Below are positions 1 through 14,183 of a stretch of 32,000 nucleotides of DNA, piece by piece. The notes under the pieces were generated by a model. That model searched no databases, was not told where the DNA came from, and worked only from the letters and a program-made list of their open reading frames with translations. Position 1 is the stretch's first letter, and each line of letters opens with the position of its first letter. The translations under genes and the position numbers were made by a program. The stretch is from an uncultured Nitrososphaerota archaeon (GTDB lineage Archaea > Korarchaeota > Korarchaeia > Korarchaeales > Korarchaeaceae): contig CAYZRF010000017.1 in the NCBI GenBank assembly GCA_964480775.1, forward strand, positions 1 through 32,000. The letters are read 5' to 3'.

Positions 1-591
1 GAGTTCTTTTTTCAACGAAGTAAGCCATAGCTCCATAGAAGATACTAACTTATCTCTAAACTTTTCATCTGGAACCCTAAGTACACTAACTAGCTTTCTT
101 GGATCTATGTCCATTATAACATTCCCTATTAATATGTCTGCTCCCTCTATTGTTTCTGCTGCATTCCCGGACGCTTTCTTTCCGTTTATCACTACATCGT
201 TTATCGGTTTATATTCGGCGTTGAGACCATATTTTCTGTATACATAAACTGTAGGCTGAAGATACTTCCTGTAAAAGGCTTCTACATCCATCGGTCCTTT
301 ACTCTTCACGATTAGATGATAGAACTGTTGCCCATCATCTAAATAGACTGCACCCCCTCCCTGTCTTCTTCTTACTATTGGTATTCCTTGAGATGAGCAG
401 TACTCCACATTCACTTCTTTGAAGACTATCTGATGGACACCTATGCAGACATAAGGTTCAGAAGGATAGCACAGAACTACGGTATTAGGCGATTTACCAC
501 TTCCTACGAATTTTGCTATTGATTCATAAACTGATTGAATGGAATAGCCGTCTAATGCACCTAGATCCAATAACCTCCACTTTTCTAGCAT
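1..591 (-). CDS. lplA: Lipoate-protein ligase A, catalytic domain (partial; 3' end runs off the window start)
   Basis: This gene is not in the supplied ORF track because it has no stop inside the window. My translation of the minus strand from the ATG at 591..589 stays open to base 1 (197 codons): MLEKWRLLDLGALDGYSIQSVYES...GIPIVRRRQGGGAVYLDDGQQFYHL...VINGKKASGNAAE...LVSVLRVPDEKFRDKLVSS. The RRxxGGGAVY.D.G motif and the GKK.SG lysine motif are BPL/LplA/LipB signatures. The VPDEKFRDK stretch matches my memory of Thermoplasma LplA. Confidence 0.85.
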   Translation of the reverse strand, partial: MLEKWRLLDLGALDGYSIQSVYESIAKFVGSGKSPNTVVLCYPSEPYVCIGVHQIVFKEVNVEYCSSQGIPIVRRRQGGGAVYLDDGQQFYHLIVKSKGPMDVEAFYRKYLQPTVYVYRKYGLNAEYKPINDVVINGKKASGNAAETIEGADILIGNVIMDIDPRKLVSVLRVPDEKFRDKLVSSMELWLTSLKKEL

Positions 592-647
592 CGGAGAAAC
601 CAATTGAGGTAATTATAAAGTGTTTTGTAGAATTAGTATGTTCCGAG

Positions 648-1088
648 TCACCTTGTAAGGATCTTAATTATGCTATAAACTATCAACAAACCAACGATTA
701 GAAAAACAACATCGTAAATTATCCCCGGATTAACTGTTTGGCCAATGTAAATTCCAAGAGCCCTTACAAGAATGTTTCTTAGATAAATGTAAAGTACGGA
801 CAAATCAACGAGGTTAAGTATATGACCTGTGATGTCTGACACCAATTCTGCCTTCTCAGGGATGCTCTCTTCATATATCATTGAAAGTGGCCTTCCTAGT
901 CCTTTGATAAGTCCTGCCATAATGAGAGCCAATAAAACCACTATGACATCCGAAACGGTAACGCCTAGCAGAGGAATTACGATGGTGCTTATTACGTAAA
1001 CCTTCATGAATACCCATAACAGAATGAAGGTAATCACTATCGCTGAAATCTGTCTGACAAGTAGCTTGCTACCTTCCTTTACTGACAC
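648..1088 (-). CDS. Small hypothetical integral membrane protein
   Basis: 146-aa ORF with a GTG start at 1088. It has several long hydrophobic segments (AIVITFILLWVFMKVYVISTIVIPLLGV, VIVVLLALIMAGLI, VVFLIVGLLIVYSII). I recognise no family. Confidence 0.45.
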   Translation of the reverse strand: MSVKEGSKLLVRQISAIVITFILLWVFMKVYVISTIVIPLLGVTVSDVIVVLLALIMAGLIKGLGRPLSMIYEESIPEKAELVSDITGHILNLVDLSVLYIYLRNILVRALGIYIGQTVNPGIIYDVVFLIVGLLIVYSIIKILTR

Positions 1089-1279
1089 ACAATCACCTAC
1101 TTCCTAAAGAAACGAGGAGATAAAAACATAACCAGGGACATAGAGAAATGGTTGTAGGAAGTGTCAATCTTCATCAAAAAATTAGAAATTAAAGACACAA
1201 ACTTAAACTCGAGCTTTAAAAATGAAAAATAAAAGAAATCTACCTTGAAAATGCTTTTAATCTCTGTTGGGCTAAGAAT

Positions 1280-1696
1280 TCATCTCTTCTTAAGGTCTTC
1301 TTTTATGAACTCGATGTATTGGTCTTTGCTCATCAAATTCTTCAAATCCTCATCCAAATTTGATGGCTTTATCTTAGCTATCCATCCCTCTCCATAAGGA
1401 TCCTCGTTAAGAAGGCTAGGCTGATCCTCTAGCTTTTCATTAACCTCCAAAACTTCTCCAGATATTGGGGACTCTATTGGTCCTGACCATTTTCCGCTCT
1501 CAATTGTACCTATCGGCTCATCTTGAGCTACCTCATCTCCAACAAGAGGTAGCTCAACGAAGACTATTTTCTTGGCGAGATACTGACCATAATCGGTCAG
1601 ACCAACAACAACGGTGTCGTCTTCTATTTTTGCATACATATTTCCTTTGGAGTAGTACAATCCTTCGGGTACCTTAAAGTCCTCTGCACTTGCCAT
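1280..1696 (-). CDS. gcvH: Glycine-cleavage H-protein-like lipoyl carrier protein
   Basis: The H-protein fold is recognisable: KVPEGLYYSKGNMYAKIEDD...VGLTDYGQ, lipoyl-lysine context IGTIESGKWSGPIESPISGEVLEVNEKL, and C-terminal DPYGEGWIAKIK. I place the start at the ATG at 1696 (MASAEDFKVPEGLYY) rather than the longest-ORF ATG at 1744, because the extra 16 residues have no H-protein counterpart. Confidence 0.85.
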   Translation of the reverse strand: MASAEDFKVPEGLYYSKGNMYAKIEDDTVVVGLTDYGQYLAKKIVFVELPLVGDEVAQDEPIGTIESGKWSGPIESPISGEVLEVNEKLEDQPSLLNEDPYGEGWIAKIKPSNLDEDLKNLMSKDQYIEFIKEDLKKR

Positions 1697-1889
1697 ATAT
1701 ATCACCAATTTAGTGAGTTCAAGGGAAAGAATAAAACCTTTCATAAGTTCGAACCTTTACAGTGAATTCTTAGTTAAGGGCGAGATTGTTGCAAAATGTG
1801 TATTTCAAATTGAGTAGTTGATCAGTTAAACTCAAACCCCTTAATTTGAAACTGTTGAATTTTTAACTGATTGAATTTACCTCAAGGCT

Positions 1890-3944
1890 GTGAACACAGA
1901 GAACGTCCTCTTCAGATTCGTAGCTCATGTGGTACCGTACTTAACATTAGGGACTCTTATAGTAGGAATCGCTCTAAAAGCAAGAAATTGGCTTAAAACT
2001 GGAACCTGGCCTAAAGCAAGGAGTTCTTTAAGTAAGTGGCTCTCTCATTTTTTGAAGAGATCTGCTTCTAATCTAATCTTGTTCTCTAAAATATACAAAC
2101 AGAGGAAGTTCTTCTGGTTTCTAAGTCTAGGCTTTCACGTGACCGTATTTATGATATTGTTCGGACACCTTAGGGGTTTTGGGGTTTGGTCAAAAGAAAT
2201 TCTTCAAAAAGTGGGCGCTAACTTCACTCATTTTATGATTGAGACGTTACCACTTTACCTCGGAATACTTTCCACAATTCTAATAGGCGGGTTGCTATTC
2301 TATAGACTCGCTAATAAAACACTTAAACTACAATCAGAGTTAGAAGACTACATAACAACTACTTTAGTTCTTCTAACAGTTGCTTCCGGTACTGCTATGA
2401 GGCTACTTCCTCCAGAATCGTTCAATCCAATGAAAATAGAATTCTTACCTGGTATTATCCTTAGGATTGAGAAAACACCAAATATACCTTTCTTTTTACT
2501 TCATATCTTATCCGCCCAGCTTCTCATAATGTATCTACCGTTCAGCAAGCTTGTCCATATAATAACGTCAGTAGTGAATGTAGCATACTCATCAATTGAG
2601 GATAAAGCAGAAGAATTTACTCCCTACGTTACTAAATGTGGAGAAAAATTAGAAATTAAGGGTAAGGAAGACGCTGCTGATAGAATTGATTTATCTGCTC
2701 TGCCAGGGAAGTTTGTACTTGCCCTTGACACATGTGTAGCATGCAGTAATTGCACTCTAAATTGTCCGACCTATAGTTTATCAGGAGAAAAAGCCCACAT
2801 ACCAGGTGTAAGACTCAAAGGTATACATAAGGCGTATTATCAGCAATCTCCGCTCTCCAAAATCCTCGGTTTAACGATAAGAAGGCAAACTTTAGAAAAA
2901 ATGATCTGGGAATGTGCTTTATGCGGTTACTGCAGCGAAAGTTGCCCATTGGAAATAAAGACAGATTCTATCTACCTACTACTGAGAATAGCAATGACAA
3001 GCGCAACTTGGACTCCAGAACCTCTAATTGATTTTTCTAATATCGTTAAAGAGACTCACAACCCTCTTGGTAGAGACAATAAAGAAAGAACTAGGTGGAT
3101 AAAGTACAGGCTTATAAGAAATAAGAAAATTGTTGAAAAGCTTGGTTCTGAAGCTGCTCCCTATTACTTCGAACTAACCGATGAGGATCTGATAAAAGAC
3201 AAGGCTGAAACAGTATACTTTGTGGGTTGCATTGCCTCGTTCTTCAGAAGCCTTTCTAGAGTTCCAGATGCGATGGTTCACATTCTAAAAGCAGCAGACG
3301 AAAACTTCACAATTCTTGGGGAAGAGGAGTGGTGTTGCGGATATCCTTTGCTATTGGCTGGAGATTTTGAAGGTTTCAAAAGGGCAGCATTACATAACAT
3401 TGAAGCAATAAAAGCCAGAGGAGCCAAAAAGGTGGTGTTTACGTGTGCTGGGTGTTATAAGACGTTCAAACACTTATACACCAAACTGTTGGGATTTAAA
3501 CCTGAATTCAAATTACTTCACTCTTCTGAGTTATTACACGAGCTGTATATAAAGGGAAGACTCAGATCAATCAAACCTAGGATCAAAGTAACGTATCATG
3601 ATCCTTGTGATATAGGAAGACATGATCACATATATCTAGAACCCAGGGCAGTGATGAGGTTTGCGGGCTGTGATTATCTTGAAATGGAAAAAGCGAAAAG
3701 AAATAGCTTCTGCTGTGGAGGAGGTGGCTTGCTTAAGCTTTCAAACCCTGAGCTTAGCACAAAAATTGCTATAGAAAGAACAAAGCAAGCAGCAATGACG
3801 GGAGCCGAATTTATTGTTACAGCCTGCCCTTCCTGTGAGATTACATTACGAGAAGGAATTCAGGCCCTTAAAGGTAAAAATCTCAAAGTCTTGGATATAG
3901 TAGAAGTTGTAGCAATTCAAACAGGTTTACTTCCCTTATCCTGA
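1890..3944 (+). CDS. Fusion of a NarI/DsrM/HdrE-type membrane cytochrome b with an HdrD/DsrK/GlpC-type CCG iron-sulfur protein (HdrED / DsrMK / EMO-like)
   Basis: GTG start at 1890. The N-terminal ~230 aa contain about 5 hydrophobic helices with paired His (LGFHVTVFMILFGHLRG; LLHILSAQLLIMYLPFSKLVHII, a NarI-family PF..LVH motif). The middle carries two ferredoxin motifs (CVACSNCTLNCP; CALCGYCSESCP). The C-terminal part has two CCG-type cysteine-rich domains (VGC...CCGYPLL...TCAGC; HDPC...FCCGGGG...TACPSC). Confidence 0.85.
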   Translation: MNTENVLFRFVAHVVPYLTLGTLIVGIALKARNWLKTGTWPKARSSLSKWLSHFLKRSASNLILFSKIYKQRKFFWFLSLGFHVTVFMILFGHLRGFGVWSKEILQKVGANFTHFMIETLPLYLGILSTILIGGLLFYRLANKTLKLQSELEDYITTTLVLLTVASGTAMRLLPPESFNPMKIEFLPGIILRIEKTPNIPFFLLHILSAQLLIMYLPFSKLVHIITSVVNVAYSSIEDKAEEFTPYVTKCGEKLEIKGKEDAADRIDLSALPGKFVLALDTCVACSNCTLNCPTYSLSGEKAHIPGVRLKGIHKAYYQQSPLSKILGLTIRRQTLEKMIWECALCGYCSESCPLEIKTDSIYLLLRIAMTSATWTPEPLIDFSNIVKETHNPLGRDNKERTRWIKYRLIRNKKIVEKLGSEAAPYYFELTDEDLIKDKAETVYFVGCIASFFRSLSRVPDAMVHILKAADENFTILGEEEWCCGYPLLLAGDFEGFKRAALHNIEAIKARGAKKVVFTCAGCYKTFKHLYTKLLGFKPEFKLLHSSELLHELYIKGRLRSIKPRIKVTYHDPCDIGRHDHIYLEPRAVMRFAGCDYLEMEKAKRNSFCCGGGGLLKLSNPELSTKIAIERTKQAAMTGAEFIVTACPSCEITLREGIQALKGKNLKVLDIVEVVAIQTGLLPLS

Positions 3945-4183
3945 CTTCTCTTTTCACATAAATTTCGTTGCAATTAAACTATTGACATCTATTGGCAAAA
4001 TAATTTACAAGTCTCTAAATCCCATTGTGCTTTTCAGGGAACAATTTTATATTGTGAAGCAATCATAAAATCCGATTTTAGCCCATGTGGTCCGATTTCA
4101 AGGACAAAGTTATAGCTCTGGAGGGCTACAATAACTTTGGCAGATTTTATCTCTAAAAAAAGCTTAAGAAGGAGCTGCTCAGG

Positions 4184-6808
4184 ATGAATGAACGATTTTC
4201 ATACTTATCGGCTCTTGGCCGCTTGGATCTACCGTTCGCCTTGACCGCATCTCCTCTTATTTACGGGTTTATTGCAGCCACCCCATTTTATCCGAAAAAA
4301 GTGGTGTTAGTCGCTTCGGCAATTCTAATTTTTCTATCTCTAAAGAAAGGGGTTCTCGCTCTTGGAATCGCGGCACTTCTTTCTACATTTTCAATCTTTT
4401 ATCAATTTGGGGGTTTGGGCTTTGTATATCTCTTAGCTGTCGGATTAGTTGTAGCTGCTGTAGCTTCCTATGGACTGGAGGCGCTTATCTTATTAGATGC
4501 TATTTACTTCAGCTTAACGCCATTTTTCTACCTTACTCCAGCACTGATAATCTTCGGGGGCTATGAATTTGGAAGTAATTCGGGACGAAATCAAGGGCTC
4601 ATAGCCTCTCTAGTTTGTCTAGGACTAGCTGCTTTATTGGGGAATCCGATGAGAAATCTATTTCCATCAATAATGGTGGATCTGCCTGTTTTAGAAGCAA
4701 CGAAACCTCTTGTTAATGAGTTTACACCAAAAGTCCTTCTTGAGGCTCTTAAATATGGGATAGAGAAGGGGATCGACCCTCAAATCTCCAAACAAATTAA
4801 TTTGGCCCTATCTCGCATATTTCTTGAAGATTTGAAACCATATGCAATAATTCTTATCTGGTCTTTAATGGGTTACATATCTGGATATATTTCAAATAAG
4901 AGGGAAGGATACTCTCGCCCCCTGCTTGGCTCTTTTGTTGGTAGTCTAACCTTAGCGCCTCTTGTTCTACTCGATAAAAACTACGCGAACATAGTTTTTA
5001 CAACACTTCTACTTTCAATAGGGATATTAAGTACAAGATACTCCATAACTCTATTAGAAAGAAAGAAAGCCGGCAAAAAAGCAGAAATCTCACTTAAAAA
5101 ACACCCAATTGGTGTTAGGGAAATATTAGAAGCGAAGAAGGTAACTCTTAGGGACATGGATCCCGAAAGACTCTTCAAAGGTGTAGCGAACTATTCAGAA
5201 ATAAAGCAAGAGTTAACAGAAGCCATAATTTGGCCTTTGATTAGATCAGACCTAGCAAAAGAGTATGGAGTTGAAATGGCTAAAGGAATTCTACTCTTTG
5301 GACCTCCCGGATGTGGGAAAACCCTATTGATGAGAACACTTGCAGAGAATACTGGACTATCCTTTATTCACGTCAGACTGGGCGAAATATTAAGTAAATG
5401 GTATGGAGAAAGCGAGAGAAACTTGTTAACTCTATTTGAGAGAGCTAGAGCGATGAAACCATGTATAATCTTCTTAGACGAATTAGATTCCATTGGAAAA
5501 AGAAGAGATATGTATGCTTCGGATGACGTGACTCCCAGGCTTCTAAGTTTAATGCTTAGCGAGATGGATGGAATGAAATATGAGGCAGGAATAATTGTTG
5601 TGGGCGCAACTAACATGCCAAACCTTTTAGATCCAGCCCTACTAAGGCCTGGAAGATTTGATAAACTAATATACGTTCCTCCTCCAGATTTCAAGGCTAG
5701 ATTTGAGATTCTAAAGTCTAAATGCATCAATCTACCGCTAGCTGAGGATATAGACTTCGAATATCTGGCAAAAATTACAGAAAGATTTAGTGGAGCAGAT
5801 ATAGCGGCTCTTTGTTCTGAAGTAAGTAGAATGGTTGCTTTTGAGACCATTAAAACAGGAAAAAAGAGAAAGATAACTCAAGAGGACTTCATTGAAGTGA
5901 TAAGATCTATGAAACCTAGTATTTCGATGCAAATGTTAGATTCTTTCCAGAGATTCAAATTAGATTATGAAAGAAGCAGGATTAAGAGAAAAAGAGAGGA
6001 AAAGAAAATCAGCTGGGATGATATTGGAAACTTGGAAGAGGTCAAGACAAAACTTTTAGAGAGCATAGAGCTTCATTTGAAGCACTCTGATTTAATGGAA
6101 AAGTACAAATTAGAACCTATAAGGGGGATTCTACTCTTTGGACCTCCCGGATGTGGGAAAACCCTATTGTCCAAGGCAGTGGCTGAAGAACTGGAGATGC
6201 CTTTTATCTACATAACAGGATCTGATGTGTTGAGCGAGGGCTTAACAAAAGCAATGAATAAGATAAAAAAGGTGTTTTACAGGGCAAAAGAAAACGCTCC
6301 TTCAATTATATTCATCGATGAGCTTGATGAGTTAGCTCCAGTGAGAGGAACAGGCTTTCCAGGTCTTGTCGGAGAGCTTCTTTCTAATATGGATGGCATT
6401 AGGGAATTTAAGGGAGTTGTAATTCTTGCGGCCTCTAACAGACCATGGGAAGTGGATCCTGCCCTTCTGAGGCCTGGTAGGTTTGATTACATTATGTACA
6501 TCCCACCTCCAAACAAGGAAGCCCGAAAAGAGATCTTCTGGGTCCATTTAAAGGGAGTCCCTACAAAAGAAATAGATTTTGAGGAGCTGGCAAATCTTTC
6601 AGAAGGATATAGCGGAGCAGATATAGCTGCTGTGTGTAGAGAAGCTAAACTCCTTGCTATTAGAGAAAAAATAGAAAAATCGGGAGAGGGGCTTGTTGCA
6701 ATGGATCACCTGAAAAAAGCTCTTCACAAGGTGAATCCTTCTCTAGACAAAAGTTTGCTTGCAAAATACGAAAAATTTGCCCAAGATTTAGGACAAAAGC
6801 TTCATTAA
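4184..6808 (+). CDS. Membrane-anchored tandem AAA+ ATPase (Cdc48/VCP-like D1-D2 with a polytopic N-terminal membrane domain)
   Basis: AAGGAG lies 12 nt upstream of the ATG. The N-terminal ~300 aa are strongly hydrophobic with multiple predicted TM helices. Two AAA modules follow. Each has Walker A GILLFGPPGCGKTLL, a Walker B (IIFLDELD / IIFIDELD) and SRH/Arg-finger DPALLRPGRFD. D1 has the pore loop SKWYGESE; D2 has none. Confidence 0.85.
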   Translation: MNERFSYLSALGRLDLPFALTASPLIYGFIAATPFYPKKVVLVASAILIFLSLKKGVLALGIAALLSTFSIFYQFGGLGFVYLLAVGLVVAAVASYGLEALILLDAIYFSLTPFFYLTPALIIFGGYEFGSNSGRNQGLIASLVCLGLAALLGNPMRNLFPSIMVDLPVLEATKPLVNEFTPKVLLEALKYGIEKGIDPQISKQINLALSRIFLEDLKPYAIILIWSLMGYISGYISNKREGYSRPLLGSFVGSLTLAPLVLLDKNYANIVFTTLLLSIGILSTRYSITLLERKKAGKKAEISLKKHPIGVREILEAKKVTLRDMDPERLFKGVANYSEIKQELTEAIIWPLIRSDLAKEYGVEMAKGILLFGPPGCGKTLLMRTLAENTGLSFIHVRLGEILSKWYGESERNLLTLFERARAMKPCIIFLDELDSIGKRRDMYASDDVTPRLLSLMLSEMDGMKYEAGIIVVGATNMPNLLDPALLRPGRFDKLIYVPPPDFKARFEILKSKCINLPLAEDIDFEYLAKITERFSGADIAALCSEVSRMVAFETIKTGKKRKITQEDFIEVIRSMKPSISMQMLDSFQRFKLDYERSRIKRKREEKKISWDDIGNLEEVKTKLLESIELHLKHSDLMEKYKLEPIRGILLFGPPGCGKTLLSKAVAEELEMPFIYITGSDVLSEGLTKAMNKIKKVFYRAKENAPSIIFIDELDELAPVRGTGFPGLVGELLSNMDGIREFKGVVILAASNRPWEVDPALLRPGRFDYIMYIPPPNKEARKEIFWVHLKGVPTKEIDFEELANLSEGYSGADIAAVCREAKLLAIREKIEKSGEGLVAMDHLKKALHKVNPSLDKSLLAKYEKFAQDLGQKLH
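5288..5329 (+). repeat. Copy 1 of a 42-nt perfect direct repeat inside the AAA+ gene (Walker A of D1)
   Basis: attctactctttggacctcccggatgtgggaaaaccctattg is identical at 5288..5329 and 6128..6169. The offset is exactly 840 nt (280 codons, in frame). The flanking bases diverge immediately on both sides. Confidence 0.9.
6128..6169 (+). repeat. Copy 2 of the 42-nt perfect direct repeat (Walker A of D2)
   Basis: Same 42-mer as 5288..5329. Other motifs conserved between D1 and D2 (for example the PALLRPGRFD region, ~5638 vs ~6461) differ at several synonymous positions. Confidence 0.9.
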
Positions 6809-6957: not shown

Positions 6958-7548
6958 TTGGACTCGCTATTCGACAAGATGTACTTGGATTTCTATGCAG
7001 AAAAGGGTAAACTTATGTGGGGACAGTCTCCTTCGCCCGGTGTAGTTCGTTTCGCTGAATTCTTGAAAAGCAAAGAAATGTCTGACGCCATCGTATTGGA
7101 TTCTGGTTGCGGAGAGGGAAGAAATAGCATTCATCTAGCAAAACAGGGGTTCAGGGTTTACGGCTTGGATATATCGGCTATTGCGATAGATAAAGCTAGG
7201 GAATGGGCTGAAAAAGAGGGTTTATTGGAAAAGATATGGTTTGAAGTCGGTGATGTTTCACAAATGGAGTTTAGAAATGAGTTCTTCGACGCCGCCATAG
7301 ACATCAACACCATAAATTTTGTCAAATCAAGAAGAAGATATGTCGCTGAGCTTTCAAGAGTACTTAAACCAAAAGGATATCTGTTTATTGAAACTTTATC
7401 AGAGAAGAGCAAAGAATACGGAATACCAAGGGAAGAACTTGACTGGCTGATAACTCCTTTCTTTGAAATTTTAGAAATAGAGGAGTTTAACGCCCCTTGG
7501 GGAGGACATAACCTTCTACATTATAGAATCTTAGCTCAGAACAGATGA
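6958..7548 (+). CDS. Class I SAM-dependent methyltransferase (TehB/Methyltransf_11-25-like)
   Basis: Motif I VLDSGCGEGRNSIHLA, followed by VYGLDIS, VGDV and the post-motif LKPKGYLFIE. The longest ORF starts at a TTG at 6958; an in-frame ATG at 6979 is an alternative start. Confidence 0.75.
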   Translation: MDSLFDKMYLDFYAEKGKLMWGQSPSPGVVRFAEFLKSKEMSDAIVLDSGCGEGRNSIHLAKQGFRVYGLDISAIAIDKAREWAEKEGLLEKIWFEVGDVSQMEFRNEFFDAAIDINTINFVKSRRRYVAELSRVLKPKGYLFIETLSEKSKEYGIPREELDWLITPFFEILEIEEFNAPWGGHNLLHYRILAQNR

Positions 7549-9251: not shown

Positions 9252-10220
9252 TCATCCTTCTTTCTCAGAGACCTCTTTCAGCGCCTTCATCAGTTCTGGA
9301 ATAACTTCATAGAGATCTCCTACAATGCCGTAATCTGCGGACTTGAAGATCGGGGCCTCTGGATCTTTGTTTATCGCTACTATTACCTTTGAGTCCTTTA
9401 TGCCTGCAACGTGTTGTATTGCTCCGGAAACCCCTACTCCTATGTAAAGCTTTGGTTTTATTGCTACTCCTGAGAGGCCAATCCATTCTGTGTACCATCC
9501 CAGGTCAGCTGCAATTGGTCTTGTGCATCCTACACATCCTCCAAGCATTTCAGCCAGTTGCTCCAGCATCCGAAAGTCCTCTTTCTTCTTTATACCTCTT
9601 CCTCCAAGCACAACGACCTCTGCTTCCTCTACCCTAACAGCTTTGATTTCTTTCGGTTTGAATTCAATGAGTTTTAGGCTTGGCTCTGGCAACTCCAAGC
9701 CGAGTTCGACAATTTCCCCTTTACCTCCAGAGGGGGCCTTTTCATACCTCCCTGGCTTCAGCAAAACTACCGCTGGTGTGCTCTTACATCTCTCTGTAGC
9801 GACCGCCATTCCAGCGTAAGCTGCACGTTTCGCTACGACGCTCCCATCGTCACCAATGTCAACTTCCGTGCATTCCGACATACAGCCTGCATTGAGCCTA
9901 GCTGCTAACCTTCCAGCCAGCTCCTTGCCTCTCTTAGTTGCGCCAATTAGCAGCACCTTTGGTTTTTCCTGCTTGGCAATGGTCTCGATGGCAGCAGCAT
10001 AGGACACAGGATCGAATCTCTCTAAGGAAGCATGATCTATAAGATAGACTTTATTTGGTCCGTGTTCAGACAGCTCTTCAGCCATATCCTTTACTCCATG
10101 TCCCAAGATGACTGAAGCTAAAGGAACATTCAGCTTCTCTGATAATCCTTTTCCAGCCGTTAAGAGCTCGAGACTAACGTTTTTATTCTCTGAATAAACC
10201 CAAACCTCGTTTTCAGCCAC
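9252..10220 (-). CDS. etfA: Electron transfer flavoprotein, alpha (large) subunit
   Basis: 322 aa. The C-terminal FAD domain has [64 protein letters not shown], the classic ETF-alpha signature. It overlaps etfB by 8 nt. Confidence 0.9.
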
Positions 10221-11010
10221 CTAGAACTCCCTCCCTAATCAAAGCTTCAACGAGCTTTTTCACCGCTTCGCTTGCTGGCATTTCCTCAAATATGACTCCC
10301 TTTCTCTTTATCTCGGGAGCTTTAGCATCTAAAATTTGCACTGCTGAGCCATTTTGGCCAAGTAATTCGCTGGGTATACCGAGTTCAGATGCATTCAGCA
10401 TTTTCATGGGCTTTTTAGAGGCTCTCATTATTGCCGGTAGGGGTGGAATTCTTGGATCGTTTATCTCTCTCGTTACTGTGAGTAGGGCAGGCAATTTGAC
10501 CTCCACAACCTCATATCCGTCCTCTAGGTCTCTTTCGACTACTATTGAATCGTCTTTGACCTCTATGATTCTCTTTACGTAAGCTACTTGGGGAATTCCT
10601 AGCAATCCAGCTAACCTAGGGCCTACTAAAGAGGAGTAACCATCACTCGTAGCTTCTCCGCATATTATCAGGTCGAATCCTTCCAGCTTTTCAATGGCCG
10701 TTTTTAGAACGAGGGACGTTACAAGAGTATCTATGTCATTGAACAAGGGATCGACGAGCAAATAAGCTTCGTCTGCACCCATTGCAAGAGCTTCTCTGAG
10801 TCCCATCTTTGCGCTTTCTGGACCAACTGTTAAGACCGTTACATGCCCACCGTGCTTTTCCTTGAGTCTAATAGCTTCTTCTATTGCCCTTTTATCGACA
10901 TCGCTGAGTTTCATCTTTGCTCCGGCCAATATTGGCTCTCCAGTTGACGAATCAAACCTAAGCTCGCTCACATCAACAGCATACTTAGCACAGGTGATTA
11001 CTCTCAACAC
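10213..11010 (-). CDS. etfB: Electron transfer flavoprotein, beta (small) subunit
   Basis: 265 aa with a GTG start. The ETF-beta layout is present: VITCAKYAVD, LSDVDKRAIEEAIRLKE, DLIICGEATSDGYSSLVGPRLAGLLGIPQV, LPALLTV. It lies directly upstream of, and overlaps, etfA. Confidence 0.9.
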   Translation of the reverse strand: MLRVITCAKYAVDVSELRFDSSTGEPILAGAKMKLSDVDKRAIEEAIRLKEKHGGHVTVLTVGPESAKMGLREALAMGADEAYLLVDPLFNDIDTLVTSLVLKTAIEKLEGFDLIICGEATSDGYSSLVGPRLAGLLGIPQVAYVKRIIEVKDDSIVVERDLEDGYEVVEVKLPALLTVTREINDPRIPPLPAIMRASKKPMKMLNASELGIPSELLGQNGSAVQILDAKAPEIKRKGVIFEEMPASEAVKKLVEALIREGVLGG

Positions 11011-11338: not shown

Positions 11339-12649
11339 TTAGGATTCAGGGACTCCCATCTTTTCTTTTAGATAAATCAAAGTGCTTGTGGCAGCGGCTC
11401 TGGCATGAGAAATGCTACTCATAATATCCATTGGACCGGTGCAGCATCCTGACAGAAATACACCATCGATTTGTGTCTCATTAACTGATCGTAGAGGATC
11501 TAAAACCTTAAAGAAAGTATCTCCATTTATTTGAACGCCCAGCTGGTTTCCAACATTCCTAGCATGGCTTGAACCAGTTACTCCAGGAATCAAGATGACG
11601 AGGTCGACATTTAACTCCTCTAACTTCCATGTTCCTGCGTCAAAGATCCTTAAGGTTAACTTTCCCTCTTTATCTCTTATCTCAGAAGGAATTCCGTGGA
11701 GCATAACGATGCCACTGTCTCTAGCGGTCTGATAAAATTCCTCGTGCATTCTTCCAGAAGCTCTTATGTCGTTGTAACAGACGTATACCTCTACCTCTTC
11801 CCTATATAACTGCTTTATCTCGTATGCTTGTTTTAGTGCTGTCATGCATCCTATCCTGCAGCAGTGCTTTAGAAATCGTCTGTCTCTTGAACCAGCACAT
11901 AAGACAAAGGCAACTGATTTGGGTCTCTTCCCATCAGATGGTCTTACCACCTCTCCTTTAGTTGGCCCTCCTGGATCTAGCATCCTTTCTAATTCCAAGC
12001 TCGTAATTATGTTCTTATATCGGCCATATCCCAGCTCCTTTACCCTTGAAATGTCAAATAACTCCATCCCAGTGGCTAAAATCAAAGCCTTAACTTGGAT
12101 TTTTGTTTCTTCTGGTCTTTCATCTAAGTTTATTGCATCATTTGGGCAGGCCTCGACGCAAGCATAACATTCCTCTCCTTTGAAATGAAGACATGCTCTT
12201 TCATCTATTGCAAATCCCTCCGGAAAGGGCCTCACAGAAGGATAATCTATAGCCTTCCTTTTTCCTATACCGAGTTCATATTCTCTATTGTACTCGACTG
12301 GGCATACTTCAGAACACTTCCCGCATGAGATGCACTTGTTTATGTCCACATGCCTAGGCTTCTTAATGATTTGAAGTTCAAAACCCTCTTCAGTCTTCTT
12401 TATAGCTTTAATTTCAACATTTGTCATTATCTGAATATTCTCTAAGTTTCTTAGCTCCTTGAACATCCCATCTAGTATGCTTGATGTTGGATCAAGCGTC
12501 GGGAACACTTTGCTTAAAAGCGAAACATTTCCTCCTAAGCTGAAGTTTCTCTCAAGCAGGTAAACTCTCACACCTTGTTTTGAGAGGCATAGGGAAGACT
12601 CAATGCCAGCTACTCCTCCTCCCACAACTGCTACCGGTCCTATAACCAT
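11339..12649 (-). CDS. hdrA: Short HdrA-like FAD/iron-sulfur protein (thioredoxin-reductase fold with an inserted 2x[4Fe-4S] ferredoxin domain)
   Basis: 436 aa. It has dinucleotide fold VAVVGGGVAGIESSL, inserted ferredoxin motifs CISCGKCSEVCP and CYACVEACP, HdrA-type VLCAGSRD...HCCRIGCM cluster motif, and C-terminal GVFLSGCCTGPMDI. The N-terminal FeS domain and C-terminal ferredoxin domain of ~650-aa methanogen HdrA are absent. Confidence 0.85.
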   Translation of the reverse strand: MVIGPVAVVGGGVAGIESSLCLSKQGVRVYLLERNFSLGGNVSLLSKVFPTLDPTSSILDGMFKELRNLENIQIMTNVEIKAIKKTEEGFELQIIKKPRHVDINKCISCGKCSEVCPVEYNREYELGIGKRKAIDYPSVRPFPEGFAIDERACLHFKGEECYACVEACPNDAINLDERPEETKIQVKALILATGMELFDISRVKELGYGRYKNIITSLELERMLDPGGPTKGEVVRPSDGKRPKSVAFVLCAGSRDRRFLKHCCRIGCMTALKQAYEIKQLYREEVEVYVCYNDIRASGRMHEEFYQTARDSGIVMLHGIPSEIRDKEGKLTLRIFDAGTWKLEELNVDLVILIPGVTGSSHARNVGNQLGVQINGDTFFKVLDPLRSVNETQIDGVFLSGCCTGPMDIMSSISHARAAATSTLIYLKEKMGVPES

Positions 12650-12753: not shown

Positions 12754-13287
12754 ATGGCAAGCGGTATGTCTAGCAGCCTATTGGATCTGATGACTCTAAA
12801 AAGAGCAGACTGGAGTATTCTGAAGGAAATAGCTAAGAAAATTGGAGAACAAAACCCAAAGAGTTGCTTTGAATGTACGAAATGCACCAGCGGTTGTCCA
12901 GCAGCAGAATTCTTGGAGATGTATCCCCACAACATAGTGTGTGCCGTCAGGGAAGGACTAGCAGAGGAGATTATCAACTCTGATGTGATCTGGAGGTGTG
13001 CTCTCTGTCTTAAATGCAAGGAAAGGTGTCCTCAAGAAGTAGCGCCTTCGGATCTCATAATAGCTCTAAGAAATATCGCCACGGACCGGGGAGTTGGCGT
13101 TCCCGAAGACCTAAACTCCGTTCTCAACTCGATCATGGAAATTGGATACATTCATCCCCCTATGAAGGCCTTCTCGAGAAGGCTAAGGAAAACTTACACG
13201 CGGGAAGATCTTGGCCTGAAAGTTCTGAAGGGACCTAAGGATATGGATGCTTTCAGGGAGGCTCTGATGGCTGCCTTCGAAGAGTAA
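12754..13287 (+). CDS. hdrC: Heterodisulfide reductase subunit C-like (2x[4Fe-4S])
   Basis: 177 aa with CFECTKCTSGCP and CALCLKCKERCP. It is coupled to hdrB through a TAATG stop/start overlap at 13285..13289. Confidence 0.85.
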   Translation: MASGMSSSLLDLMTLKRADWSILKEIAKKIGEQNPKSCFECTKCTSGCPAAEFLEMYPHNIVCAVREGLAEEIINSDVIWRCALCLKCKERCPQEVAPSDLIIALRNIATDRGVGVPEDLNSVLNSIMEIGYIHPPMKAFSRRLRKTYTREDLGLKVLKGPKDMDAFREALMAAFEE

Positions 13288-14183
13288 TGGGAGGGTTTCG
13301 ATTGGGAAGCGATGGTCCGAGATATGCTCTCTATCTGGGATGTATGATAGCGAATGAGGAGTATGCATATGAGATGTCCACTAGAGAAATCATGAGGGAG
13401 CTTGGCGTTGAATTAGTAGATCTAGAAGGAGAAAGCTGTTGTGGTAGTCCAATCCGCAGCTTGAACACAAGATTATGGCTATACCTTGCAGCCAGAAACC
13501 TTTCTCTTGCCGAAAGAACGGGATTAGATGTTCTTTGTCTCTGTAGTGGGTGCTTCGAATCCCTGCTCGAAGCAAAAAATTTCCTAGAGAACAGCGAAAG
13601 TCTAAAGAAGTGGGTTAACGAGGCGTTATCTCTTGAAGGGCTTGAGTATACAGGCAGGTGTAAGGTGAAGCATCTTGTCCAGGTTTTGCATGACGACTTG
13701 GGCGTTGAAAGACTGAGAGAGCACGTAAAAAATGAGCTTAAAGGTCTAAAATTAGCATCTCATCCAGGGTGTCATCTGCTTAGGCCAAGCAAGGTGCTTA
13801 GAGCAGATGATCCAGAGGATCCGAGGAAACTGGATGAACTTATCGAAGCAAGCGGCGCTGAGGCTATCGACTATCCAGAAAAACTAGATTGTTGCGGAGC
13901 AGGACTGCTTCTAATGAAACCAGAGGGGACTATGAGCTTTGCTGGGACTAAACTAAAGGCTTTGGCAGCCAGAGAAGTGGATGGTTTGGTAACGGTGTGT
14001 CCTGCTTGTCATGTCGTGTTCGATAAAAGACAGGGGGCCATAAGCAGACAGGTGGGCGTCGATAAGAGGATTCCAATAATTTACTACCCACAGCTACTGG
14101 GACTGGCCTTTGGTATAGAGTCTGAGAGGTTGGGAATCCATCTGAATAGCAGCCCTGTGGAGGAAATCCTATCCAAGATATAG
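13287..14183 (+). CDS. hdrB: Heterodisulfide reductase subunit B-like (two CCG domains)
   Basis: 298 aa: LGC...ESCCGSP...CSGC and HPGCH...LDCCGAGLL...VCPACH, the duplicated CCG cysteine pattern of HdrB. Confidence 0.9.
   Translation: MGGFRLGSDGPRYALYLGCMIANEEYAYEMSTREIMRELGVELVDLEGESCCGSPIRSLNTRLWLYLAARNLSLAERTGLDVLCLCSGCFESLLEAKNFLENSESLKKWVNEALSLEGLEYTGRCKVKHLVQVLHDDLGVERLREHVKNELKGLKLASHPGCHLLRPSKVLRADDPEDPRKLDELIEASGAEAIDYPEKLDCCGAGLLLMKPEGTMSFAGTKLKALAAREVDGLVTVCPACHVVFDKRQGAISRQVGVDKRIPIIYYPQLLGLAFGIESERLGIHLNSSPVEEILSKI

Follow-up and report, generated by a model that had tools for sequence, protein, structure and literature searches.

What would a membrane enzyme of the heterodisulfide reductase (Hdr) type act on in an anaerobic archaeon in which the heterodisulfide CoM-S-S-CoB is not expected, and what would a lipoylated carrier protein encoded beside it do? 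Both questions are raised by the first 3,944 nt of contig C17 (CAYZRF010000017.1) of G000, the metagenome-assembled genome (MAG; GCA_964480775.1) of an uncultured member of the Korarchaeaceae. The whole stretch analysed, hereafter the window, is G000:C17:1-32000, and its base 1 is the contig end. Positions 1-3944 hold a cut lipoate-protein ligase gene (lplA), the gene of a small membrane protein, a GcvH-like gene and a divergent gene encoding a 684-aa fusion protein, so that open reading frames (ORFs) and Pfam matches bear out the four-gene content described in an earlier note on this DNA. The answer favoured here, to which we give a probability of roughly 60%, is that the fusion protein is a single-chain HdrE::HdrD that would exchange electrons between a lipoylated carrier of the LbpA (lipoate-binding protein) kind and the membrane carrier pool. 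The features concerned are:

1-603, minus strand: fused LplA-LplB lipoate-protein ligase, N-terminal 201 aa with the catalytic domain (PF21948, E 1.1e-37); the contig end cuts the gene
648-1088, minus strand: TM146, a 146-aa hydrophobic membrane protein between ligase and carrier, with no Pfam or NCBIfam match
1280-1696, minus strand: LbpA-type lipoyl carrier, 138 aa, GcvH-like (PF01597, E 4.7e-42); the longest ORF is 1280-1744
1697-1889: divergent spacer with TATA-like A/T-rich boxes at about 1725-1737 (lbpA side) and about 1857-1867 (hdrED side)
1890-2669, plus strand: HdrE/NarI-type cytochrome b domain, residues 1-260 of the fusion (PF02665, E 2.2e-12)
2718-2960, plus strand: HdrC-like ferredoxin domain with two CxxCxxCxxxCP motifs (Fer4_8 at residues 279-356)
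3207-3851, plus strand: HdrB-like double-CCG (non-cubane cluster) domain (PF02754, E 1.5e-28, two stretches)

Window ORFs were listed and those of at least 100 aa were scanned against Pfam, and the neighbourhoods of other loci were taken from fetched sequence by our own ORF calls and tblastn. The genomes compared are MAGs that are 71-94% complete (90% for G000 and 93% for G002 of the same genus), so that a gene given here as not found in them may still be present; the phylum was sampled by 43 species genomes, and trees were built by quick search. Metagenome contigs were scanned with an alignment of the fusion's HdrD clade, a sample not chosen by carrier, and the best 80 loci were read; the resulting counts are lower bounds, as many contigs are short, and the loci are phylogenetically non-independent.

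The lipoyl carrier and its ligase

The GcvH-like gene probably starts at M17 (position 1696), since orthologue lengths match this start, an in-frame stop precedes it in the same-genus genome G004, and a GGTGA Shine-Dalgarno sequence lies before the ATG. The protein has the GcvH fold by its PF01597 match, and NCBIfam GcvH models score it above their cut-offs. Its lipoyl-lysine motif is ESGKWSG, in which K-W-x-G is invariant among 29 close homologues (alignment A1). When this alignment was used to scan one genome per species and the neighbours of each locus were read by tblastn, K-W-type carriers were found near HdrB/HdrA/HdrC-like, HdrD-like, EtfA or LplA genes, and classical ESVKA/S-type proteins near gcvT/gcvP. 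A carrier tree of 97 rows (61 classical and 36 other) divides along the same line. The 61 classical GcvH rows, among them the genome's own copy on contig C4, form a clade with a support of 98, of which 32 have gcvT/P nearby and none has Hdr-type neighbours. The window carrier lies outside this clade, among the 36 remaining rows; 25 of these have Hdr, EMO or Etf neighbours, and a gcv gene is nearby in a single one. Its group includes an Ectothiorhodospira hdr-like locus as well as actinobacterial and Chloroflexota loci with an etfAB-emo layout resembling that of type II sHdr clusters. The window protein thus combines several features of an LbpA: it is GcvH-like, has a lipoyl-lysine, is divergently encoded from the HdrE::HdrD gene and has hdrA/C/B within 12.5 kb. 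As judged from its sequence and neighbours, it is an LbpA kind of protein and not a glycine-cleavage H protein.

The earlier note had stressed that the lipoylation genes have no visible glycine-cleavage partners. This stands for the 32-kb window, where no gcvT, gcvP or E2 gene was detected among ORFs of at least 100 aa searched against Pfam; it does not stand for the genome, which encodes the full set on other contigs. There, gcvT lies on C2, gcvPA/PB and a second GcvH on C4 (with the GcvH 5 kb from gcvP) and E2 on C9, and three LplA paralogues are present. With a complete glycine cleavage set elsewhere, the window carrier is an extra copy and not the H protein of an incomplete pathway. Nor do glycine cleavage genes follow beyond base 1: both the continuation on contig C25 and the corresponding region of G004 carry unrelated genes, those after the ligase on C25 encoding a hypothetical protein, a metallo-beta-lactamase, a DUF84 NTPase, KaiC, a CDP-alcohol transferase and HtrA. 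The carrier could still be a second H protein, or a general housekeeping substrate of lipoylation whose place beside the fusion is meaningless, a view to which the NCBIfam scores and the close orthologues that do not lie beside a membrane Hdr (G036, G037 and G041:C15) lend something. We regard it as very improbable, given the classical GcvH already present beside gcvP, the position of the window copy outside the classical clade, the rarity of gcv genes relative to Hdr-type genes around the non-classical rows, and the recurrence of the adjacency across phyla and in metagenomes.

The ligase next door is cut by the contig end after its catalytic domain. Its C-terminal part of about 143 aa, with the Lip_prot_lig_C domain, lies on another contig of the genome (C25:2-433) and corresponds to residues 232-374 of the G004 orthologue at 90% identity; that full-length orthologue has 374 aa and combines LplA-B_cat with Lip_prot_lig_C. 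Contigs C17 and C25 hence abut inside lplA, with about 27 codons absent between window base 1 and C25 base 2 by comparison with the 374-aa protein. By BLAST, the window ligase is 31-38% identical to ligases adjoining LbpA/HdrD genes in other phyla and 28-34% identical, over shorter stretches, to its own two paralogues. A dedicated ligase encoded nearby is a further feature of LbpA proteins; here it is a fused LplA-LplB gene two genes from the carrier and syntenic in the genus. The LbpA of Hdr-like systems (Cao et al. 2018) is also characterised by escaping modification by canonical ligases and by being needed for sulfur oxidation through Hdr. The intervening TM146 gene is likewise syntenic in G002, G003, G004 and G001, where the proteins are 65-86% identical. 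No homologue of TM146 was detected outside the genus in any other locus searched, and the ESM Atlas returned only unnamed clusters for it.

The HdrE::HdrD fusion and its relation to EMO

The fusion ORF (684 aa, 1890-3944, plus strand) comprises a Nitrate_red_gam domain, a 4Fe-4S dicluster domain and two CCG stretches. In its cytochrome b part, His83/His93 (x9) and His205/His223 (x17) are spaced like dihaem ligands and are kept in G004 and in the split subunit of G041; the spacing is the same as in E. coli NarI (H56/H66/H187/H205). Eight cysteines of the HdrC-like domain (C282, C285, C288, C292, C342, C345, C348 and C352) are invariant in the fusion's clade, and the domain would bind two cubane [4Fe-4S] clusters. 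The HdrB-like domain has ten (C447, C482, C483, C519, C522, C573, C608, C609, C646 and C649), which are kept in the fusion, in every member of its clade and in 80/80 metagenome relatives. Two His pairs, two cubane-cluster motifs and ten CCG cysteines make up the cofactor complement of Methanosarcina HdrDE, the methanophenazine-dependent enzyme in which a dihaem cytochrome b is likewise joined to two cytoplasmic cubane clusters and two CCG motifs (10 Cys). The module proposed here would share with HdrDE the coupling of thiol/disulfide chemistry to a membrane carrier pool. It differs in that the window subunits form one chain, being split in related families of the same phylum, and in its presumed substrate: mcrA was not found in the five genomes searched (G000 and four relatives), so CoM-S-S-CoB is not expected and protein-bound lipoyl would take its place.

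A single chain of NarI-like, HdrC-like and HdrB-like domains is also the architecture of EMO/EtfD from Syntrophus aciditrophicus and mycobacteria (PMC8805022; preprint 10.64898/2026.08.18.745454; PDB 9OJN), which have the same domain order and a similar size, and which share with this genus a neighbourhood of beta-oxidation and EtfAB genes. The fusion might accordingly be a working EMO that passes electrons from EtfAB, loaded by the acyl-CoA dehydrogenase (ACAD) 4 kb downstream, into the membrane pool in beta-oxidation, with LbpA and the ligase as mere neighbours. ACAD, EtfAB and a beta-oxidation operon do lie within 4-14 kb in a layout kept in the genus, the genome has no other NarI-fused Hdr, the best solved relative of the fusion is the mycobacterial EMO/EtfD 9OJN, and an ACAD gene lies some 4 kb from two of the NarI-fused relatives in metagenomes.

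The cysteines speak against this interpretation. In Hdr, two non-cubane clusters are held by ten cysteines around an open substrate site, and the solved EMOs are one cysteine short, their clusters serving for electron transfer only (preprint 10.64898/2026.08.18.745454, cryo-EM of the Syntrophus EMO). The same work describes the loss as Cys to Gly after a His that blocks the substrate site in Syntrophus (SaEMO H534-G535) and as Cys to Thr in the mycobacterial 9OJN (MsEMO). The window fusion has the full set and no His-Gly: it reads CAGC in the columns where CPHG, the signature that the preprint gives for the solved EMO, is seen both in Etf-adjacent fusions from sister genera of its family (g5) and in the fusions of g3, the largest genus of the family. 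NarI-HdrD fusions of 626-669 aa with CPHG were located in sister genera at L024 (G011:C72), L025 (G008:C36), L029, L030 and L037; those of g5 are convergent with etfAB and serve as an internal contrast to the window protein. The EMOs of type II sHdr clusters, which are placed in the EMO clade, have lost the whole first CCG cysteine set, whereas the window protein keeps the full catalytic-type set. At four type II sHdr-like loci (L082, L094, L100 and L112), the EMO and HdrB3-like proteins have all five cysteines of the first CCG motif replaced (D/N/A/D/S and similar) and also lack the last cysteine of the second.

In a tree of HdrD domains, the window fusion falls into a clade of 13 rows (support 97), eight of which adjoin an LbpA-type gene, and this clade is separate from one (support 99) that holds all Etf-linked proteins. 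Joining the HdrD and EMO clades costs 60 log-likelihood units (approximately unbiased (AU) test, p 1e-6), for groups that were named after the tree had been seen. Etf genes were found at 0/80 metagenome loci of the fusion's clade, against LbpA at 45/80, and compact hdrE-hdrD-lbpA units occur with no Etf nearby. EMO identity was rejected on these grounds (ten cysteines, no His-Gly, a separate clade and AU p 1e-6, no clade locus with Etf), and the fusion does not behave as the pure EMO that the earlier note had named as a way for its proposal to fail. A working EMO is thus an unlikely account of the gene, and on the strength of these motifs and this placement the label "EMO-type" should be dropped, the protein being better called a fused HdrE::HdrD.

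Conservation of the adjacency and the soluble Hdr genes

The arrangement of ligase, TM146 and carrier divergent from the fusion is syntenic in G004, G003 and G001 of the same genus. Three other families of the phylum also have members of this HdrD clade, there with separate hdrE and hdrD genes that form a compact unit with the carrier gene, the surrounding genes being unrelated each time: in G040, hdrE-hdrD is followed by a convergent lbpA; G042 has hdrE-hdrD-lbpA; and G041 has hdrD-lbpA-hdrE-hdrD. None of these three compact units has Etf nearby. Outside the phylum, an Anaerolineae MAG carries lbpA-narI-hdrD and a Terraquivivens MAG carries lbpA divergent from hdrD-glcD-lbpA. Among the 80 metagenome loci, a K-W-type carrier was found at 45 (usually at less than 400 nt), NarI-like genes at 41, LplA at 23 and GlcD at 15; eight of the 80 relatives are NarI-fused like the window protein. 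The pairing is therefore not peculiar to this genome, which the earlier note had seen as a danger to its proposal.

What is kept is adjacency and not the divergent promoter, as gene orientation varies between lineages and is convergent or co-directional elsewhere. The spacer itself, put at about 145-190 nt in the earlier note, measures 193 nt from the M17 start and 145 nt from the longest ORF. In an alignment of five same-genus spacers, two separate A/T-rich boxes are kept, each 30-40 nt before a start, the centre is variable, and no shared operator was seen. The suggestion of shared regulation through the divergent promoter consequently finds no backing, the spacers having only two separately kept TATA-like boxes and no common conserved element.

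Downstream of the fusion, the window codes for a Cdc48-like AAA protein, a methyltransferase, ACAD, EtfAB, a truncated HdrA, HdrC, HdrB and a beta-oxidation operon, as well as F420-related genes and subunits and accessory factors of carbon monoxide dehydrogenase/acetyl-CoA synthase (CODH/ACS). Genes that may supply soluble partners, recognised by Pfam and NCBIfam matches, are:

9252-11010, minus strand: etfA/etfB
11339-12649, minus strand: truncated hdrA
12754-13287, plus strand: hdrC
13287-14183, plus strand: hdrB

This parts list recalls the sHdr-LbpA systems of types I and II known from Hyphomicrobium denitrificans, Aquifex, Sulfolobaceae and Actinobacteria/Firmicutes (PMC6067878, PMC11094781), which likewise have a GcvH-like lipoate-binding protein distinct from GcvH, a lipoate-protein ligase of its own next door, and linkage to proteins with CCG motifs and non-cubane clusters. 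Type II clusters also contain EtfAB and a membrane protein of the NarI-HdrD type, which here occur within 14 kb. The 14-kb stretch might therefore be an archaeal relative of the type II arrangement (shdrC1B1AHB3-etfAB-emo), in which LbpA would work with soluble HdrA/HdrCB and the fusion would be only an ETF-fed membrane exit. The match of ligase, LbpA, EMO-like protein, EtfAB, HdrA, HdrC and HdrB (PMC11094781) favours such a relation. So does the window HdrB, which most resembles HdrB genes adjoining LbpA-type genes in three proteobacterial MAGs (41-43% identity, 226-856 nt from the LbpA-type genes, compared with 27-33% to its own paralogues). Although its fusion is lost, G002 retains LbpA along with the Hdr/Etf genes, and at G041:C15 a TusA gene lies between lbpA and glcD.

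The components differ from sHdr, however. The window HdrA is truncated and of the methanogen type (PDB 9SFI, E about 8.5e-98), with weak likeness to sHdrA (6TJR, E 7e-29), and the window has no sHdrA-type flavoprotein. It contains a single HdrC/HdrB pair, no HdrB3-like gene besides the fusion, and no sHdrH or sHdrB3 that could be seen; DsrE was not found in the five genomes. The host is an anaerobe with CODH/ACS and not a sulfur oxidiser, a Wood-Ljungdahl setting ill-suited to sulfur oxidation, and the fusion departs from the EMOs of type II sHdr both in its cysteines and in its clade. TusA genes exist in the genomes searched but not near the window module, and a search for TusA near the module in 160 loci gave a single weak match, in L201. 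Membership in a canonical sHdr system was rejected, the HdrA being of the wrong type and DsrE not being found in the five genomes, and the wider relation to the type II arrangement appears improbable. A further difference lies in the models themselves: those for sHdr pair LbpA with a soluble complex, and the reading preferred here pairs it with a membrane Hdr.

Several observations weigh against that preferred reading. The evidence that ties LbpA to HdrD is their adjacency, and the clades compared by the AU test were defined with the tree in view. The carrier has no cysteine at all, whereas most described LbpAs, including those of sHdr, have two conserved ones (PMC6067878). In G002, about 97 aa are left of the fusion and the AAA gene is missing, with ligase, TM146 and LbpA intact and ACAD-EtfAB-HdrA still following the remnant; the fusion is therefore dispensable for the role of LbpA there. 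No membrane Hdr gene adjoins the closest orthologues of the carrier, which are in G036/G037 and at G041:C15. An ETF-linked role of the fusion retains some likelihood from the lack of another NarI-fused Hdr in the genome and from ACAD and EtfAB only 4-7 kb downstream. Finally, of the routes to a membrane carrier, the one searched was the futalosine pathway, whose genes MqnA/D were not found in the five genomes. Taken together, the G002, G036/G037 and G041:C15 carriers and the likeness of the window HdrB suggest that LbpA probably works with more than a single Hdr-type partner, the membrane enzyme being one of these.

Some further details of these loci may be recorded. The Cdc48-like double AAA+ ATPase (4184-6808, plus strand) lies directly downstream of the fusion, and in G002 this gene and most of the fusion were apparently lost in a single deletion of about 4.6 kb. 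The gene between the AAA gene and ACAD (6958-7548, plus strand) encodes a class I S-adenosylmethionine (SAM) methyltransferase with a weak UbiE/COQ5 match (E 1.3e-6), and in G002 it still adjoins the fusion remnant. The genome has another etfBA pair at G000:C3:33467-35483, in which EtfA is longer (402 aa). In G036, an 894-aa GlcD::HdrD fusion (L045:9111-11795, G036:C1) has an HdrD part that is sister to the LbpA-adjacent HdrD of G041; the LbpA orthologue of that genome is on the same contig at a distance of 290 kb, flanked by a TGT-family gene and an ORF of 449 aa without annotation. At G041:C15 (L146, 3594-5760), lbpA, the TusA-like gene (4066-4272) and a GlcD-type gene running off the contig end are co-directional, with a Cas12f/TnpB-like gene upstream and arsA also adjoining the locus.

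The proposed redox module and what it would mean

On balance, the ligase, the LbpA-type carrier and HdrE::HdrD appear to be the three working parts of a lipoyl-protein redox module that is self-contained. The dedicated fused LplA-LplB ligase would lipoylate the carrier, and the dithiolane/dithiol of the lipoyl arm on cytoplasmic LbpA would serve as the substrate at the non-cubane clusters of HdrD; the cubane clusters and b haems would conduct electrons between this site and a pool of lipid-soluble carrier, in one direction or the other. We infer such a physical reaction between LbpA and HdrD, and the carrier is probably the missing disulfide substrate of the membrane Hdr-type enzyme. The proposal of the earlier note, that a carrier-bound lipoyl group is a plausible substrate of the CCG domains, has to this extent gained support, as none of the three circumstances said to count against it (an adjacency unique to this genome, glycine cleavage genes just beyond base 1, a fusion behaving as a pure EMO) was encountered.

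The direction of the reaction may be gauged from standard potentials, which are about -290 mV for lipoamide and -75 to -165 mV for a quinone or phenazine. Oxidation of dihydrolipoyl-LbpA by the membrane pool would therefore be downhill, and the reverse would need proton-motive force. In the cytoplasm, LbpA may be charged or discharged by soluble Hdr-type modules: here by the truncated HdrA and HdrCB beside EtfAB, elsewhere by GlcD-HdrD. A bona fide E3 was found in just one of the five genomes, and the carrier's likely redox partners are therefore enzymes of the Hdr type. All five have NuoH, which was taken as a sign of a membrane chain. In G040, a nuo operon lies directly beside arsA-hdrE-hdrD-lbpA; this locus, L042 (G040:C31:9500-29000), carries a complex-I-like operon from nuoA to nuoN on the minus strand, together with arsA, adjoining hdrE-hdrD-lbpA. 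In this non-methanogen, LbpA could thus be a protein-bound stand-in for CoM-S-S-CoB.

A comparison may also be drawn with the HdrD/GlcD units of non-methanogenic or methyl-reducing archaea; the conserved Hdr units of Korarchaeia have been called "puzzling" (PMC10667645). Such units can have an HdrD domain in the clade of the window fusion, as in the GlcD-HdrD fusion of G036, and LbpA-type genes also adjoin GlcD/HdrD in Terraquivivens and GlcD at G041:C15. They differ from the window enzyme in being soluble and fed by an FAD-linked subunit of the 2-hydroxyacid oxidase type and not by a membrane cytochrome b. A broader and more tentative proposal, which we hold to be possible though somewhat short of an even chance, is that in non-methanogenic anaerobes the full-cysteine HdrD/HdrB enzymes have LbpA-type lipoyl proteins as their physiological, protein-bound disulfide substrates. 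LbpA would then be a two-electron shuttle that connects soluble modules (HdrABC-like, GlcD-HdrD) with membrane enzymes of the HdrED type.

The association of LbpA with soluble sHdr complexes, and the presence of EtfAB and EMO in type II clusters, are already known (PMC6067878, PMC11094781). No publication linking LbpA or a GcvH-like protein to HdrD, HdrDE or GlcD-HdrD was found in a search of a collection without most subscription journals, which returned at most papers about sHdr and sulfur oxidation or about Hdr topics of other kinds, and two papers on Korarchaeia, including PMC10667645, make no mention of lipoate. The window contributes a single-chain form from an archaeon and, in the cysteine signature, a test that tells the fusion apart from EMO. 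Current annotation does not distinguish catalytic membrane Hdr enzymes from EMOs, and automatic pipelines wrongly call the carrier GcvH (NCBIfam gives it that name). If the reading is correct, a sequence rule, ten cysteines versus a His-Gly signature together with an LbpA neighbour, would separate the two kinds of enzyme.

Hdr-like enzymes are widespread in anaerobes without methyl-coenzyme M reductase, and in archaeal and bacterial phyla alike the carrier accompanies HdrD genes with the full cysteine set. A dedicated lipoyl carrier is for these enzymes a concrete candidate disulfide substrate, which can be expressed and assayed. If the broader proposal is true, it would answer what "heterodisulfide reductases" reduce where CoM-S-S-CoB is lacking, including the Hdr units of Korarchaeia. 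Confirmation of the candidate would widen the role of LbpA from aerobic and lithotrophic sulfur oxidation to anaerobic energy metabolism, and it would add protein-bound lipoate to the respiratory electron carriers.

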